A stretch of DNA of 64,000 bases, taken from the NCBI GenBank assembly GCA_944388955.1, contig CALXKJ010000007.1, positions 57,671 to 121,670 on the forward strand, written 5' to 3'. The notes beneath the pieces were generated by a model, which saw only the letters and a program-made list of their open reading frames with translations, was not told where the DNA came from and ran no database searches. The stretch's first letter is position 1, and the number at the start of each line of letters is the position of its first letter. This stretch comes from an uncultured Spirochaetaceae bacterium. Its GTDB lineage: Bacteria > Spirochaetota > Spirochaetia > Sphaerochaetales > Sphaerochaetaceae. Shown here piece after piece: positions 4,907 to 51,165 of this stretch. The translations under genes were made by a program, and so were the position numbers.

Positions 4907-6179
4907 CGATTGCCCTCTGGATAAGCGTGGCCATATCATGAACAGCCTCGTCGATATCCTTCCCGTCCTCAGTGACAGCTCTTATCTCGCTCTGGAATGA
5001 ATAATATATCTGATAAGCCGAAGGAAGCCATATGCTCGTCACAGCCGGGTTCGATTGAAGCATCTGCTCAGTTGCGACCTTGAATGCTGGGTTCTCATCG
5101 AGGAATGCCAGATATTCAGGATTATCATAAAGCGCGGTGTTGATAGCGAGGTACCCCGTATCCTCCGCCCATTTCATCTGCACATCCTGTGATACAAAGT
5201 ATTCAATGACAGTCTTCACGGCATCTGATGAGTCAAAGAGAAAGAAGGCCCCACCTCCGATGTTAACGCCGCCTGTTGCCTCTTCGTCTGTCATTGGCAC
5301 GAATGCCGTGCCGACTTCAAACCTTCCGCCTACTGTATTGATGACAGCTGTAAGGCTGGAGGAAGAGGCGAGCATTGTTGCAGTTCTTCCCGCCGCGAAT
5401 TCCGTGCTTATACCTGATGTGATGTTGTTCACGAAGCCTGTATCATAGAGGGCTTTCCAATGCCCGAGGAAATTTCTGAACGTGCCATCCTCCTCAAAGA
5501 GTACCTTTGAAGGTGTCCCCATGTGTCCATTCTTCTCATCGACGATATACGACAATCCTTTCTGCGCTCCGATGAATGCACCAAGCTCATATGTGGCTGG
5601 AACACCAGCAAAGGCGTAGCGTGTCACCTTTCCTGTGCTGTCTTTCTCTCCGAGAAGCGGTGCGATAGCAGCAAAATCATCAAGAGTCTCTGGTGGATTG
5701 AGTGAAAGCGAATCAAAAAGCGTTTTGTTGTAATAGAAGAGCAGCGATGACGCATTGAAGGGGACACCAAGAAGTCCTTTATCTGACATGAGGGCTTCTA
5801 TCGCGGCAGGATGTATTTCCGATATCTCTATATCTGCGCTTTCTGGAAGGATGAGATAATCCGCATTGCGCATATCCAGGCATGCTGTTGCATCAAGCTG
5901 CGCGATATCCGGAAGTGATGATATGTCAGCGGAAGCCGCGGCTTTCACTTTCGTAAGCACATCATTCGCAAGCCCCTGATAGATAGCTTCAATGACGATG
6001 CCTTTCTCTTCTCCGATTGTGCTGTTGAAGTCATCGACAATCTCATCAAATGCTGTCCCTGAAGGTCCTGAATTCGAATGCCAGATTTCGACAACTGTCT
6101 TGCCGCTTTCCTTGCTTCCCCTCGCAAAGAGCATCATTCCCGCCATAAGCAGCAATGATAACGCAATCATCTTTTTCAT
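4878..6179 (-). CDS. ABC transporter substrate-binding protein (family 1, carbohydrate type)
   Basis: 433 aa with an N-terminal signal peptide, MKKMIALSLLLMAGMMLFARGSKES. Size and composition are typical of CUT1 binding proteins, and it is adjacent to two permeases. Confidence 0.8.
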   Translation of the reverse strand: MKKMIALSLLLMAGMMLFARGSKESGKTVVEIWHSNSGPSGTAFDEIVDDFNSTIGEEKGIVIEAIYQGLANDVLTKVKAAASADISSLPDIAQLDATACLDMRNADYLILPESADIEISEIHPAAIEALMSDKGLLGVPFNASSLLFYYNKTLFDSLSLNPPETLDDFAAIAPLLGEKDSTGKVTRYAFAGVPATYELGAFIGAQKGLSYIVDEKNGHMGTPSKVLFEEDGTFRNFLGHWKALYDTGFVNNITSGISTEFAAGRTATMLASSSSLTAVINTVGGRFEVGTAFVPMTDEEATGGVNIGGGAFFLFDSSDAVKTVIEYFVSQDVQMKWAEDTGYLAINTALYDNPEYLAFLDENPAFKVATEQMLQSNPAVTSIWLPSAYQIYYSFQSEIRAVTEDGKDIDEAVHDMATLIQRAIDEYRAQNID

Positions 6180-46200: not shown

Positions 46201-47595
46201 TTATTCTATCACTTTTCGGTGAAGTTCCTCTCCGTACCTCTGAAGAGACAGGAGTATTTCCTTCGCTCTGTAGTCTGTATCGACGCTTTCAATGCGCTCT
46301 TTTATCGTTCTCATATAGAGCTCATAAGTCGGTGTTCCCTCGACAGGAGGGTTTATAAGACGGAGCGCGCAGAAATTCTTCCAGTTTGCTTTCTCTTTCT
46401 CCGGAAGCACTTCAGGCCAGTTCCTCGCCACTTGTCTCCATAGAAGCTTGTGGTATTTGTCATCCTCGAAAAGGTGCTCGCCCTTGGTAAGCTTCTCCTC
46501 TGGTTTCATTGCTCTTATGGATGCCATCACGCCTTTATCGTGATCGGAGGGGAAGGAGCTGTAGATAGTCAGATCCGGATCCTTCACGTCATCATGATAT
46601 GGCTCCTTCGCCTTGAGGATGGCTTCCTTTGTCAGGAGTGGGCATTTCATCGCTTCATTCACTTTTCTCTGGATATCAGCATGCGTGAATCCAAGTCTCT
46701 CCTCGCTTTTGCTGTCAAGGACTGACAAGGGCGCTATGAATGGGGAGCGGTTTATCATCAGGCGCAGGATGCCTGTCTCATGATAGCCCCCATCAAGACT
46801 TGTTGGCAGCTCCTTCGTAAGATCGAAGCAGTAAAGAGCTGCTGATTTCTCAGCCTCATAAAAAAGCGGAAGCAATGGATGCGTGTTGCCTCTATCAGAC
46901 ACGAAAAGGGGACATGTGTGCAGAAAAGGCTTATGCTCAAGCACCTTTATCTCATTCGCTATCTGATTCTTTCCTCTGTGGTTAAGTGCCCATGTGAAAA
47001 GGCGTGGCTGTTTTTCTTTTATAAGCTTTGCAATGGCGATTGTCGCCTCTACATCACATAACGCATCGTGCGCGTGTGTCTGCTCAATATGATTCTCTTC
47101 TGTGAGATCTGTAAGCTTGAAAGACGGAGCGTTGGTTTCAGGATTGGTTTTCTCGAATGATATCCCTTGAGGTCTCAGATCCCTTGTCGCCCTGACAAGA
47201 TTTATAATGTCCCATCTTGAGCATCTGTTCCTATATTCGCGCTCAAATGGATCATAGAGATTCCTGTAAAGCGTGGAGCGTATGACTTCATCATCGAAGT
47301 TTATGCTGTTGTAACCGACTGTAATCGTGTCAGGAACAAGGAATTCCTGCTGCAGCCTTTCTATCATCTCCGCTTCAGGAATCCCTTTTTCATTCACCTC
47401 CTGCGGTGTTATGCCTGTCACAAGGCATGAGTCGGGAGATGGAAGGTAATCAGGGGAGAGCTTTGAGTAGAGGACAATAGGCTCCCCGATCTGATTGAAA
47501 TCCATATCGGTGCGTATACATGCGGCCTGGGCAATCCTGTCATATTTTGGATTCAGGCCGAATGTCTCGAGATCATACCAGAGAAAAGTCTTCAT
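46201..47595 (-). CDS. sbcB: Exodeoxyribonuclease I
   Basis: The N-terminal [20 protein letters not shown] DEDDh exonuclease motif, [10 protein letters not shown], and a length of 464 aa. Confidence 0.9.
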
Positions 47596-47617: not shown

Positions 47618-48016
47618 TCAATGACAGCAGTGGTGTGCTCCATCGCTGTCGTGATGGCAGCCTCCTTCATGTTCATGATCATGGTGATGGCACTCAACAT
47701 TCTCATCGAATTCCAGTCTTCCTTCCGCGAAGGCTTTGGCGGCATCATCAGCAGAGCCGGAGACTCCCGGATAGATTTTTATTCCGCATGCGCCAAGAGC
47801 GGCCCTTGCGCCTCCTCCGATGCCTCCGCATATGAGAGCTTCCACACCGTGGTCGCGAAGGAATGGTGCGAGAGCTCCATGTCCACCAGTGGATGAAGCA
47901 TCGACTTTCTCTTTGTCTGTGACTTTCCCGTCTTCGATTGTGTAGATCATGAATTCCTCAGTTCTTCCGAAGTGCTGGAATACTGAGCCGTTATCATAGG
48001 TAATTGCAGCTTTCAT
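47618..48016 (-). CDS. NifB/NifX-family (dinitrogenase FeMo-cofactor-binding fold) protein with His/Cys-rich C-terminal tail
   Basis: ATG 48016 lies after a GAGGAG RBS. Core FGRTEEFMIYTIEDGKV...ALICGGIGGGA. Tail CHHHDHEHEGGCHHDSDGAHHCCH. Confidence 0.75.
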   Translation of the reverse strand: MKAAITYDNGSVFQHFGRTEEFMIYTIEDGKVTDKEKVDASSTGGHGALAPFLRDHGVEALICGGIGGGARAALGACGIKIYPGVSGSADDAAKAFAEGRLEFDENVECHHHDHEHEGGCHHDSDGAHHCCH

Positions 48017-48074
48017 TGTAATCTCCTCTCTCTGAATATAGCCGCACTTTCGTTTGTCGTGTAGAGTCGTAGGT

Positions 48075-49361
48075 ATGAAGGATTCTAGAAAAGAGATTAT
48101 CTCGTGGTCTTTGTATGACTGGGCGAACAGCGCGTTCGCCACGACTGTTATGGCTGCTTTCTTTCCTATTTTCTTCTCCCAGTACTGGTCAATGGGAGCA
48201 GATAGCGCGGAAAGCACATTCTTCTTAGGGCTTGGCAATTCACTCGCTTCGCTTCTTGTGGCTGTCCTTTCGCCAATCATAGGCGCTATTGCAGATAAAG
48301 GCAGCTACAGAAAGAAGCTTCTCATACTTTTTGCATTCCTTGGTGCTGCGATGACAGCAGGTCTCTTCCTCGTCTCAGCGGGAATGTGGCCTGTTGCTAT
48401 CATACTGTATGTTATAGCCAACATAGGTTTTGCAAGCGCAAACACATTCTATGATTCGCTTCTTCCTTCAATTGCATCGGAGAAGAAGGTCGACTTTGTT
48501 TCCTCTCTCGGATATTCCCTCGGGTATATCGGAGGTGGGCTTCTTTTCCTGATAAATGTTCTCATGTATCTCATGCCAACGGCTTTCGGACTTCCTGACG
48601 ATGGAGGAATAACGGCAGTAAGGCTTTCATTCCTGATGGTCGGTATCTGGTGGATAGTCTTCTCCATTCCTCTCATGGTCTTCGTGAAAGAGCCTGAAGG
48701 CGAGAAGATGAAACTCTCAAGAGCTATAAAAGAAGGTTTTGGGGATCTTGGAAAAACACTTAAATCACTGAAGCAGCTGAAGAACACAGCACTCTTTCTG
48801 GTCGCTTATTGGTGTTATATCGATGGTGTAGACACAATCATCAAGATGGCTACTGACTATGGCACAGCCCTTGGATTCTCCGCCTCAAGCCTTATCGTTG
48901 CGCTTCTCATAACGCAGTTTGTCGCATTCCCTGCAGCTCTCCTGTATAACACATTCGGAAAGAAGGTCGGCGTGAAGCGCGCGCTTCTTGTGGCTATAGC
49001 GGCATATATGATTATCGCCTGCCTTGGCTTCTTCATGACAAAAGAGAGCCAGTTCTATGCGCTTGCAGTCTGCATTGGTCTGTTCCAGGGTGGTATACAG
49101 GCACTGTCGAGATCTTATTTCTCAAGGCTTATACCGGAAGGCGAGACAGCACAGTTCTATGGCTTCTTCAACCTTCTAGGCAAATTCGCGGCAATCATAG
49201 GGCCGCTTCTCCTTGGTGTCGTGACGCTTATAACAGGTCAGCAGCGCTTTGGAATTCTTTCGCTGATAATTCTCTTCCTTATTGGTTTTATCCTTCTGAG
49301 AAAAGTCGATGATAGCCGTGTAGAAGAGGACCTCAAGGCATTCAAAGCCGCAAAAGGCTGA
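48075..49361 (+). CDS. MFS transporter, UMF1 (Atg22-like) family
   Basis: The N-terminal ISWSLYDWANSAF signature and about 12 TM segments. Confidence 0.8.
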   Translation: MKDSRKEIISWSLYDWANSAFATTVMAAFFPIFFSQYWSMGADSAESTFFLGLGNSLASLLVAVLSPIIGAIADKGSYRKKLLILFAFLGAAMTAGLFLVSAGMWPVAIILYVIANIGFASANTFYDSLLPSIASEKKVDFVSSLGYSLGYIGGGLLFLINVLMYLMPTAFGLPDDGGITAVRLSFLMVGIWWIVFSIPLMVFVKEPEGEKMKLSRAIKEGFGDLGKTLKSLKQLKNTALFLVAYWCYIDGVDTIIKMATDYGTALGFSASSLIVALLITQFVAFPAALLYNTFGKKVGVKRALLVAIAAYMIIACLGFFMTKESQFYALAVCIGLFQGGIQALSRSYFSRLIPEGETAQFYGFFNLLGKFAAIIGPLLLGVVTLITGQQRFGILSLIILFLIGFILLRKVDDSRVEEDLKAFKAAKG

Positions 49362-49374
49362 GAATCATTGCAAA

Positions 49375-49404
49375 CGGCTTGCTTCAAACTAGTGGAGCGA
49401 GCCG
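49375..49404 (+). terminator. Hairpin after the MFS gene (11-bp stem with 2 G-U pairs, no clear U-tract)
   Basis: CGGCTTGCTTC-AAACTAGT-GGAGCGAGCCG, 14 nt after the stop. Confidence 0.35.
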
Positions 49405-49474
49405 CTGTAAATAACAACACATCCTCACCATCCCTTCGTAGGCAGCGATTCTGTTTCGCACATAAAAGTTTTGC

Positions 49475-49505
49475 TTGACAGATTACAACCGGGGGGGGGT
49501 ATTTT
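49475..49505 (+). promoter_or_regulatory. Sigma70-like promoter TTGACA-N19-TATTTT whose spacer ends in a G9 tract
   Basis: TTGACA 49475-49480 and TATTTT 49500-49505, with RBS ACGGAGGA 49521-49528 and ATG 49533. Confidence 0.55.
49491..49499. repeat. Homopolymeric G9 tract
   Basis: The sequence reads CC GGGGGGGGG T. This is confirmed by PPP in the antisense ORF translation. Confidence 0.95.
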
Positions 49506-49532
49506 TGAGATATCAAATATACGGAGGATGAA

Positions 49533-50057
49533 ATGAAGAAGATTTCTGTATTGCTTTTTGCAGTATTGATGGTGTTTGCATTCACAGCTTGTGACAACAC
49601 AACAAAAGGACCAGATGAACCTGTATACCTTTCAACAGGAACTATGGGGGATGTCGAGTTTGAAAATGGCTCTGTAACACTGACGACGGAAAATCATAAG
49701 GATTATGTTGTTGATGGCTCTCTTGCGACGATGAAAGCGGATCAAGCTAAAGCATTCAGTGGTGGTGGAGATGGATGGAAAGAAGGCTCCCACTATATTT
49801 CATTGAATGTGAGTGGAGTGAGCGAAGAGAATAAAGTCGAAAAGCAAGGCTGGGTTTCTGCAATTGATTCGACTGATTATCTTGATGAGAAAACTGGATC
49901 TGTAAAGACTGGAAAGATTCTCGCGATAACAAACGGTGGTACTGTACGCTCTGAGCTTGGAAATCATTATATCTGGAAGATTGTTCTTGAAGATGGCAAG
50001 GAATATACAGTTGATTTTACTAAGCAGTTCAATGCGCTTAGCAATCAGGGTGAGTGA
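49533..50057 (+). CDS. Hypothetical lipoprotein (candidate phase-variable surface protein)
   Basis: Signal and lipobox MKKISVLLFAVLMVFAFTAC. 174 aa, no recognised domain. Confidence 0.65.
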   Translation: MKKISVLLFAVLMVFAFTACDNTTKGPDEPVYLSTGTMGDVEFENGSVTLTTENHKDYVVDGSLATMKADQAKAFSGGGDGWKEGSHYISLNVSGVSEENKVEKQGWVSAIDSTDYLDEKTGSVKTGKILAITNGGTVRSELGNHYIWKIVLEDGKEYTVDFTKQFNALSNQGE

Positions 50058-50090
50058 TTGAATCACTCCTAATGAAATTTCACTGAATAG

Positions 50091-50122
50091 ATCCGGAATC
50101 AGATAAAGGTTCCGGATTTTTT
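50091..50122 (+). terminator. Rho-independent terminator
   Basis: ATCCGGAA-(11-nt loop)-TTCCGGAT followed by TTTTT. Confidence 0.8.
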
Positions 50123-50205
50123 AGTACTATATTTCATATTGATTTAACAACGGTGATACTTCCGTATTAACATCTGTGCACAATACTTCCACCTAAGGTT
50201 ATCAG

Positions 50206-51165
50206 ATGGAGATACGGGTAAGAAACATAAGAAAGTCATTTGGTGAGAAGACTGTCATAGGAAACCTCTCCCTTGATATCACATCCGGAAGCTTCACAAC
50301 GCTTTTAGGACCTTCTGGATGCGGCAAGACAACACTTCTCAGAATGATTGCAGGTCTTGAGACTCCTGATAGCGGGGAGATATATCTTGGTGATCGCTGT
50401 GTGTTCTCTTCCGTGAAAAACATATCAATACCACCAGAAGAACGGGGTATTGGTTTCGTTTTTCAGGATTTTGCACTCTGGCCGCATATGAGAGTCCGTG
50501 ACAATGTGGCTTTTGGTCTTAAAGCGAGGAAAGTCTGCGAGTGTGTGGATGAAAGGGTGAAGGAAGCCCTTCATGCCGTACAGCTTGATGATTATATCAA
50601 TCGCTATCCCTCAGAGCTTTCTGGAGGGCAACAGCAGCGTGTTTCATTTGCAAGGGCTATAGTGACTGAGCCTGAGTGTATCCTGTTCGACGAACCGCTT
50701 TCCGCACTCGATGCTCTTCTTCGTGAGGAGATGCGCGCAGAGTTAAAGTCTCTTGTTTCGGAAAGAGGTATCACATCCGTGTTTGTTACACATGATCAGA
50801 CTGAGGCTATGTCCATGTCTGACATGATTGCCGTCATGAATGGGGGATTTATCGAGCAATACGATACACCTGAGAATATATATAGTAATCCAAAGACTGT
50901 TTTTACAGCACGCTTTGTCGGTGTCTCAGACTGGCTTGATGATAGTCGTATGTTCCGTCCTGAGAATGCTGTTCTTTCTGACGATGAAGGAATGTACAAA
51001 TCGAGTGTAACAGGACTGGAGTTCATGGGCTCCTGTTATCGTCTCATTCTCAATCATGAAGGACAGAAGTGGATAATCAATGCTGACAAGCCATATCAGA
51101 TTGGCTCGTTGGTATATGTGAATATCGAAAACAAATCGATAGTTTCTATCGGAAAGAGAGGCTGA
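50206..51165 (+). CDS. ABC transporter ATP-binding protein (FbpC/PotA-like, Fe3+/polyamine type)
   Basis: GPSGCGKTT, LSGGQQQRVSFARA, ILFDEPLSALD, and a C-terminal TOBE-like extension. Confidence 0.85.
   Translation: MEIRVRNIRKSFGEKTVIGNLSLDITSGSFTTLLGPSGCGKTTLLRMIAGLETPDSGEIYLGDRCVFSSVKNISIPPEERGIGFVFQDFALWPHMRVRDNVAFGLKARKVCECVDERVKEALHAVQLDDYINRYPSELSGGQQQRVSFARAIVTEPECILFDEPLSALDALLREEMRAELKSLVSERGITSVFVTHDQTEAMSMSDMIAVMNGGFIEQYDTPENIYSNPKTVFTARFVGVSDWLDDSRMFRPENAVLSDDEGMYKSSVTGLEFMGSCYRLILNHEGQKWIINADKPYQIGSLVYVNIENKSIVSIGKRG

Follow-up and report, generated by a model that had tools for sequence, protein, structure and literature searches.

A polymorphic G tract in the promoter spacer of a lipoprotein gene from an uncultured gut spirochete as a probable contingency element

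We analysed a 64-kb stretch of DNA from an uncultured Spirochaetaceae bacterium (64,000 nucleotides (nt) of contig CALXKJ010000007.1, hereafter the window), in which a lipoprotein gene at 49533-50057 is preceded by nine consecutive guanines (G9) lying between the -35 and -10 hexamers of its predicted promoter. Comparison with other genomes suggests that this tract is probably a slippage-driven contingency element, a simple sequence repeat (SSR) within a sigma-70-type promoter. Its layout is that of a promoter-spacer SSR, with a tract of at least 7 nt, here G9, located between TTGACA and TATTTT. The elements of the promoter and the gene are as follows.

49475-49480, + strand: -35 hexamer TTGACA, a perfect sigma-70 consensus
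49481-49499, + strand: spacer of 19 nt, consisting of GATTACAACC and then G9
49481-49490, + strand: GATTACAACC, the non-repeat half of the spacer; the ACC just 5' of the tract is semi-conserved in the family
49491-49499, + strand: G9 homopolymer, the 3' half of the spacer; it adjoins the -10 hexamer and sets the -35/-10 spacing at 19 nt
49500-49505, + strand: -10 hexamer TATTTT, which matches the family-wide TAnnnT
49512, + strand: predicted transcription start, 7 nt 3' of the -10 hexamer, placed from family conservation
49523-49528, + strand: ribosome-binding site (RBS) GGAGGA, 4 nt ahead of the ATG at 49533; GGAGGA is kept in the family
49533-50057, + strand: monocistronic lipoprotein gene of 174 amino acids (aa), starting MKKISVLLFAVLMVFAFTAC, with a signal peptide, lipobox FTAC and Cys20

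The original prediction had placed TTGACA, the 19-nt spacer, G9, TATTTT, the RBS and the ATG at these positions, and all proved right to the base. It had also described G9 as the longest homopolymer, with no other long run of G or C, and this was borne out across the window: the runners-up are A8, A7 and two T7, and runs of G or C are otherwise at most 5 nt long. In dinucleotide-preserving shuffles the expectation for GGGGGGGGG was 0.02 per window, with any occurrence present in 1 of 100 shuffles. On its own the pattern TTGACA-N15-21-TANNNT is no scarcer in the window than chance predicts (4 against 3.2 expected). A consensus match by itself is therefore no evidence of a promoter, and the assignment rests on comparative conservation and not on the consensus match alone. 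Such conservation backs the -35 and -10 elements that had been named. All of 30 homologous promoters have the T, A and T of TAnnnT immediately 3' of the tract, and in most of them TTGACA lies 9-10 nt 5' of it. A consensus promoter scan, which permits spacers of 16-18 nt only, missed the site at 49475-49505, and among the 9-mers of the window with at least 7 G there was no further degenerate family promoter. Other readings of the region were tried and set aside. A structural role of the tract was rejected as unsupported, the DNA fold of 49420-49540 being weak (z -2.2) and the leader RNA fold not significant, and extracytoplasmic function (ECF)-type, sigma-54 and sigma-28 readings of the GAAC/ACC flank were rejected by eye for lack of a matching downstream element.

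A first line of evidence comes from the same species. We searched for contigs that encode this exact lipoprotein, a 97%-identical form of it, the ABC ATPase downstream and the MFS protein upstream, and so obtained ~25 independent contigs that cover the locus, drawn from several ENA and Logan assemblies. A comparison of tract length across related isolates or metagenome bins had been proposed as a check, and in this set the tract proved variable, with 13 alleles and one tract truncated by rearrangement, beside nearly invariant flanks; an invariant TTGACAGATTACAACC precedes the tract. The alleles include the following.

G9: the window and seven other samples, the commonest allele
G10: L002
GGAG6: L004
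GGAG7: L008
GGAG9: L176 and L183
GGAG10: L186
GGAGGAG8: L169
GGAGGAG9: L180
CGGAGGAG8: L006 and L007
GGGTG11: L178
G4TG4: L170
TGAG4AG3: L184
G5, at which a rearrangement breaks the tract and unrelated DNA follows: L181

The window and contigs L001-L005 are identical over up to 1.5 kb outside the tract, with one additional G in L002 and a G-to-A change inside the tract in L004. Nine of the 16 contigs with matching flanks carry an allele other than G9. As a control we followed 24 homopolymers of 5-6 nt, shorter than the tract, in the surrounding 7 kb, and observed one length change among all contigs. No other site of the region varies nearly as much as the tract, which is polymorphic in length among close strains far above background. 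Three modes of change were seen: single-G steps, interrupting G-to-A or G-to-T substitutions and duplication of a GGA unit. The pattern specific to the window gave zero matches in the Joint Genome Institute (JGI) metagenomes, from which the window species is absent.

These data effectively refute the view that the tract is a sequencing or assembly artefact, or a chance homopolymer without function, and we give that view almost no weight. Poly-G is error-prone on Illumina and coverage is low in some contigs (3-4 for L004, L181 and L184), but the tract stands at the same place in ~25 independent assemblies of several projects and in 30 homologous promoters, against a chance expectation of 0.02 per window. 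The substitution and GGA-duplication alleles, moreover, are found repeatedly, in several contigs, and mere miscalling of length cannot account for them.

A second line of evidence is the wider family, for which a family-alignment scan of one genome per GTDB species gave 31 loci. Most come from metagenome-assembled genomes (MAGs) of uncultured gut Spirochaetaceae, Spirochaetales or Treponemataceae, including Candidatus Ornithospirochaeta. Almost every spirochete locus has the same layout, cTTGACA, 7-10 nt, G8-10, TAnnnT, ~25-35 nt, GGAGGA and ATG; a few Clostridia loci, which are signal-peptide-only matches, are without the tract. In the 30 unique promoters, taken from L010-L042 and the window, the tract is G9 in 17, G8 in nine, G10 in three and G7 in one. 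The six bases on its 3' side are T (100%), A (100%), G (80%), two variable positions and T (100%), and the invariant T, A and T fall on the three positions at which a sigma-70 -10 hexamer is most conserved. On the 5' side, positions -3 to -1 relative to the tract are A (77%), C (70%) and C (70%), and TTGACA or a one-mismatch form lies 7-10 nt away (13 nt in one case) in 27 of the 30, at 9-10 nt in most. In 87% of the family promoters there is an A at position +13 after the tract, with C ahead of this position in 60%, and the position is a plausible start site. G runs of at least 7 nt in the family loci are in promoter context in all but one case. The loci contain 43 open reading frames (ORFs) that begin with a family-type signal peptide, and the tract lies upstream of 31 of them; the rest are mostly Clostridia loci or unrelated lipoproteins, with one at a contig end.

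Tract length differs by 1-2 G between close homologous promoters in the family as well: G9/G9 in L011 vs G8/GGTG7 in L013, G8 in L029 vs G9 in L035, G8 in L034 and L039 vs G10 in L041, and G8 in L038 vs G9 in L040. Two family tracts are interrupted, in L028 (9304-9315, G6AG5) and L031 (475-485, G6TGGG), and are probably locked alleles like GGAGn. In a Treponema sp. MAG (L037, ~63-85) a family-type lipoprotein, MKKILPFLMILMMLFAFVACD, has TTGACA and then (AT)7, the poly-G being replaced.

The steadiness of the tract across the family speaks for a different explanation, in which it is a fixed cis-element, structural or contacted by a lineage-specific regulator or sigma factor, that is needed for activity, with the polymorphism being mere noise at a dispensable, decaying gene. 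G8-G10, with G9 as the mode, is kept in 30 promoters of several genera whatever the length of the fixed part of the spacer, and the flanks are conserved, ACC before and TAG after the tract. The frequent pseudogenisation and deletion at the locus would also fit, as would the family-wide lack of a 17-nt spacer, and a CRP homologue of Treponema pallidum binds poly-G tpr promoters and acts jointly with tract length (PMC7864442). We consider this explanation unlikely, as a required element should not show 13 alleles in one species beside invariant flanks. Homopolymers of at least 8 nt decay fast without selection, yet here they have lasted at dozens of promoters, paralogous and orthologous, against a background without any other G run above 5 nt. 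Surface lipoproteins with a high nonsynonymous rate are, in addition, classic targets of contingency loci.

In the slippage-driven contingency element that we favour, slipped-strand mispairing during replication would gain or lose a G within clonal populations, and the distance and angle between the -35 and -10 hexamers would shift in 1-bp steps. Transcription of the lipoprotein gene would thereby be raised or lowered, heritably and reversibly, according to tract length. Substitutions in the tract (GGAG..., G4TG4) and GGA duplications would give longer, interrupted and less slippery alleles, and these interrupted or expanded alleles may represent locked states, probably OFF. In the same species every G9 copy has an intact ORF. 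Disrupted ORFs were found in 5 of 8 copies with spacers of at least 22 nt vs 1 of 13 with spacers of 21 nt or less (Fisher p = 0.014), an association consistent with silent long alleles. Across the family, in the 27 promoters with a recognisable -35, the spacer is 15 nt in one, 16 nt in two, 18 nt in eight, 19 nt in 14 and 20 nt in two. The sequence comparisons point, indirectly, to spacers of 18-19 nt being functional and those of at least 22 nt being OFF.

Several observations weigh against this reading. The original expectation that shortening the spacer to 17 nt would turn the promoter ON found no support: a 17-nt spacer occurs in 0 of the 27 family promoters with a recognisable -35, so that a 'slip to 17' switch does not fit, no allele of the same species has a spacer below 19 nt, and the commonest allele of the species is G9, with all of its ORFs intact. 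The tract still measures 8-10 nt in L019, L022 and L025, whose spacers have a fixed part of just 7-8 nt, which hints that the tract itself, and not just the total spacing, may be constrained. When shared mutations are counted as single events the association between long spacers and disrupted ORFs loses its significance (p = 0.17). Differences among assemblies could in part be homopolymer sequencing error, chiefly the lone G10, from a Logan contig, and the alleles at ~3-4x coverage. Finally, the G at -14, beside the -10 hexamer, could act as a partial extended -10 and lessen the dependence on spacing.

The dominance of 18-19-nt spacers has two possible explanations. By analogy with T. pallidum tprL, the populations sampled may be mostly in a low or OFF state. 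A more speculative alternative is that the G tract shifts the optimum, through a stiff A-like helix or through G at -14 serving as a partial extended -10. The clustering at 18-19 nt would also suit a rheostat combined with a regulator, in which tract length tunes promoter strength and a transcription factor on the same promoter decides between ON and OFF. Sigma-70 promoters at this spacing are weakened, not dead. In T. pallidum, expression of tprL in vivo showed no clean correlation with the number of G and additional factors were proposed (PMC7864442). We regard a regulator of this kind as improbable here, as the window contains no candidate operator or regulator gene tied to the cassette and conservation of the promoters is confined to the -35, the -10, the tract flanks and the start region.

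Beyond the promoter, the family shares a signal peptide, MLFAFxACD, which is joined to unrelated mature parts. Most tblastn matches cover residues 1-30 only, and what is conserved is therefore a promoter-plus-signal-peptide module joined to unrelated mature proteins. The lipoprotein of the window has few homologues, two of them at 42-43% identity (L010 and L011); both loci have the same promoter design, and each carries a second copy ahead of another lipoprotein. The window holds one family copy. In a MAG fairly close to the window organism, BRZ_FG__bin46, whose ABC transporter components are 79-88% identical, we found at least 8 such promoters on 6 contigs (L013, L014, L016, L018, L021 and L026), so that several genes of one genome share the promoter-plus-signal-peptide module. 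The loci of distant homologues are not syntenic with the window, and the tract is therefore conserved within a mobile or duplicating 5' module and not as an ortholog-conserved site. Carried on many unrelated lipoprotein bodies, the shared module would give each cell a combinatorially variable surface lipoproteome.

It is possible, though we hold this only tentatively, that the window copy is the visible tip of an undescribed, clade-wide and portable 5' module of gut Spirochaetaceae and Treponemataceae that generates a combinatorial, stochastically switching surface lipoproteome. The portable unit would comprise TTGACA, N9-10, G8-10, TAnnnT, a leader, GGAGGA and MLFAFxACD, and strains may exchange it at hairpin boundaries. 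Its operating spacer would be 18-19 nt and not 17 nt, and a rigid, A-like poly(dG).poly(dC) segment could possibly shorten or untwist the spacer.

Two further observations concern these relatives. Small ORFs of 67-94 aa with weak HTH_23/HTH_29 matches lie 3' of the poly-G lipoprotein genes in L010 (2231-2434) and L011 (3621-3905 and 6280-6540), near Peptidase_M78/HTH genes and a gene judged Hint-like by eye, for which there was no Pfam match; this context may be a mobile element or prophage. In L017, from a related Spirochaetaceae MAG, another lipoprotein gene on the - strand (ATG at 5407) has G8 at 5384-5391 within its signal-peptide coding part. With G8 or G9 the reading frame stops after 28 or 17 aa, respectively, and with G7 or G10 it encodes a 160-aa lipoprotein, making this G8 a candidate translational on/off switch.

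The locus itself is a hotspot of gene loss, frameshift and whole-cassette replacement. The lipoprotein gene has a nonsense mutation at 49743 in L176 and L183 and a truncated C-terminus in L170, and a coding G5 run at 49646-49650 (+ strand) is G6 in L178, L180 and L186, which causes a frameshift and leaves a 43-aa product. This coding run is a second slippage site in the gene, of irreversible appearance. In L167, L181 and L187 the promoter and the 5' part of the gene are replaced by unrelated DNA. In L177 and L179 (2330-3287) another lipoprotein (MKKIVVALLALSVVFMFASCD...) occupies the slot equivalent to window 49404-50122, with a promoter of its own, TTGACG-N10-G9 (or GGAG6)-TATTCT, in which L177 has G9 and L179 GGAG6; the replacement ORF of L179 is split in two, with products of 177 aa and 119 aa called. 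The edges of the slot are marked by two hairpins.

49375-49404, + strand: upstream stem-loop with a 12-bp stem and a 6-nt loop, without a U-tract (-23 kcal/mol, z -5.2)
50089-50122, + strand: intrinsic terminator, a hairpin at 50089-50119 with a 12-bp GC-containing stem and a 7-nt loop, then T6 (-21 kcal/mol, z -5.1)

The upstream stem-loop closes the region of the MFS transporter gene and marks the 5' edge of the exchangeable cassette, and the downstream hairpin with its T6 is a canonical intrinsic terminator that forms the 3' boundary; a consensus terminator scan missed it owing to its loop limit. The original prediction had the gene bracketed by a hairpin and a strong terminator, both of which are real (z -5.2 and z -5.1), and had called it a self-contained cassette. 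This view is supported by L177 and L179, which carry a different lipoprotein gene with its own poly-G promoter in the slot, and in which homology to the window reaches no further than 49403, the base before the last paired one of the hairpin, 49404. The upstream neighbour is an MFS/Atg22-like transporter gene, and downstream an ABC transporter operon starts at 50206 with its own promoter-like site at 50144-50173. Two genes further upstream, both on the - strand, are unrelated to the tract: 47618-48280 encodes a Nitro_FeMo-Co (NifB/X-like) domain protein with a His/Cys-rich tail and 46201-47595 an exonuclease I homologue.

The product is an orphan lipoprotein that is probably exposed at the surface. 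Searches of Pfam, NCBIfam and PHROGs gave no family match, only matches at the level of the signal peptide. An AlphaFold2 model (predicted local distance difference test 83.7) suggests that the mature part is a small beta-rich domain, for which Foldseek found no significant fold match in the PDB or BFVD (best E 0.04-0.05, template modelling score <0.3). No tandem repeats were found in 49300-50200. Compared with L006 the lipoprotein gene has 6 nonsynonymous and 2 synonymous codon changes, and the neighbouring MFS gene 0 and 10, showing elevated protein divergence of the lipoprotein relative to its neighbour. The lipobox signal peptide and these ratios (6:2 vs 0:10) are those of a secreted, putatively surface-exposed product under variable selection.

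The closest known systems are in T. pallidum, where poly-G promoters have been described for tp0126 and tprE/G/J/F/I/L (Haynes et al. 2021, PMC7864442; Giacani et al. 2007, 2015). In tp0126, which encodes an OmpW homologue, the activity of the promoter is set by the length of a tract located between -35 and -10 (PMC7864442). For tprE/G/J/L the tract varied from 7 to 11 G in vivo and was mostly G9, with G8 active and G10 not; in tprL G9 predominates and G8 is the active length (PMC7864442). The locus studied here resembles these in belonging to the same order, in a promoter G run of ~7-11 nt ahead of an envelope protein gene and in the presence of several loci per genome. As in tp0126 the tract lies between -35 and -10, and as in tprL, there in vivo, G9 is the commonest length. 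Several differences are also apparent. The tpr tract overlaps the -10 region, with transcription starting 4 nt after the tract, whereas the tract here adjoins an intact TAnnnT, and tp0126 is optimal at 17-nt spacing, of which the family here has no member. The product is an orphan lipoprotein without a Pfam match and not a Tpr/MOSP or OmpW beta-barrel; neither a Pfam nor an NCBIfam family indicates such homology, and the small beta-rich model has no match in the PDB. Furthermore, the organism is an uncultured gut commensal and not a pathogen, and the promoter is linked to a signal peptide common to many unrelated lipoproteins.

Promoter repeats of another kind occur in T. phagedenis, where, as summarised in PMC13474147, the lipoprotein promoters of vpsA, vpsB and prrA carry (TA)n repeats that vary among isolates (Mushtaq et al. 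2016). In that account these too are treponemal lipoprotein genes with a promoter SSR that differs among isolates and with allelic variants of the lipoprotein. The repeat there is the dinucleotide TA, as against poly-G here, and the (AT)7 in the tract position of L037 is reminiscent of what that account gives for vpsA and prrA. In Neisseria meningitidis porA the poly-G tract likewise lies between -35 and -10, and its length sets the spacing and with it transcription of a surface protein gene (PMC7864442). The organisms and proteins are unrelated, and porA is highly expressed at 17-nt spacing. The poly-C of Bordetella fim and the (TA)n of Haemophilus hif are cases related to this spacer type. 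The porA tract sits in the middle of the spacer and does not adjoin the -10.

The Mycoplasma hyorhinis Vlp system (Rosengarten & Wise 1990/1991, as cited in PMC11868660) is similar in architecture. Its surface lipoproteins form a multigene family in which a conserved 5' module, consisting of a promoter homopolymer and a signal peptide, precedes divergent mature regions, and each gene switches on its own, so that the surface varies combinatorially. Size variation of the mature Vlp proteins comes from tandem repeats, of which there are none here, and the Vlp genes are clustered, whereas the members here are dispersed and sometimes paired (L010, L011, L013 and L016). The homopolymer in the Vlp promoter spacer is poly-A, unlike the poly-G found here. 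By analogy, then, the locus would be mechanistically of the porA/tp0126 type and architecturally like the Mycoplasma Vlp family. In the literature, of which our coverage was incomplete, no lipoprotein family with poly-G promoters turned up for spirochetes of the gut or of termites.

The promoter design is also seen well outside this family. The generic pattern TTGACA-N9-10-G8-N0-2-TAG gave at least 120 exact matches in the metagenome collection, on contigs of very different G+C content. About half of these read on as TAGAAT although the search required TAG only, and for this reason many of them are taken to be real promoters. Promoters of the form TTGACA-N-G8-to-G19-TAG(AAT) were recorded in many unrelated taxa (L047-L166), and recurrent metagenome loci have G8, G9 and G10 alleles in different human-gut samples. 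The downstream genes that we sampled encode sortase-type, Big_2 and ESPR-autotransporter-like surface proteins, lipoproteins and one ORF resembling the HsdS subunit of a type I restriction-modification system (L125). A poly-G tract in the spacer is thus a widespread contingency-promoter design and not a spirochete peculiarity; what is specific to the spirochetes is that it is linked, in conserved fashion, with a signal peptide.

The syphilis spirochete, an organism that is genetically hard to manipulate, is known to use poly-G promoter switches for immune evasion. The natural alleles described here, pure, interrupted and expanded, provide material for reporter tests of tract length against promoter strength. 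The pattern TTGACA-N9-10-G8-10-TAnnnT is usable as a marker of contingency loci in metagenome annotation, and the orphan lipoprotein family is flagged as a likely target of host or phage selection in gut spirochetes. Taken singly, the locus resembles a textbook contingency promoter; the possible clade-wide module and the puzzle of the 18-19-nt spacer are the parts that deserve follow-up. Conservation of the same poly-G device ahead of dozens of lipoprotein genes in non-pathogenic gut relatives suggests that the mechanism is ancestral in the group and, if the clade-wide module is real, the poly-G promoter control known from T. pallidum would be ancient among treponemes rather than an adaptation specific to pathogens.

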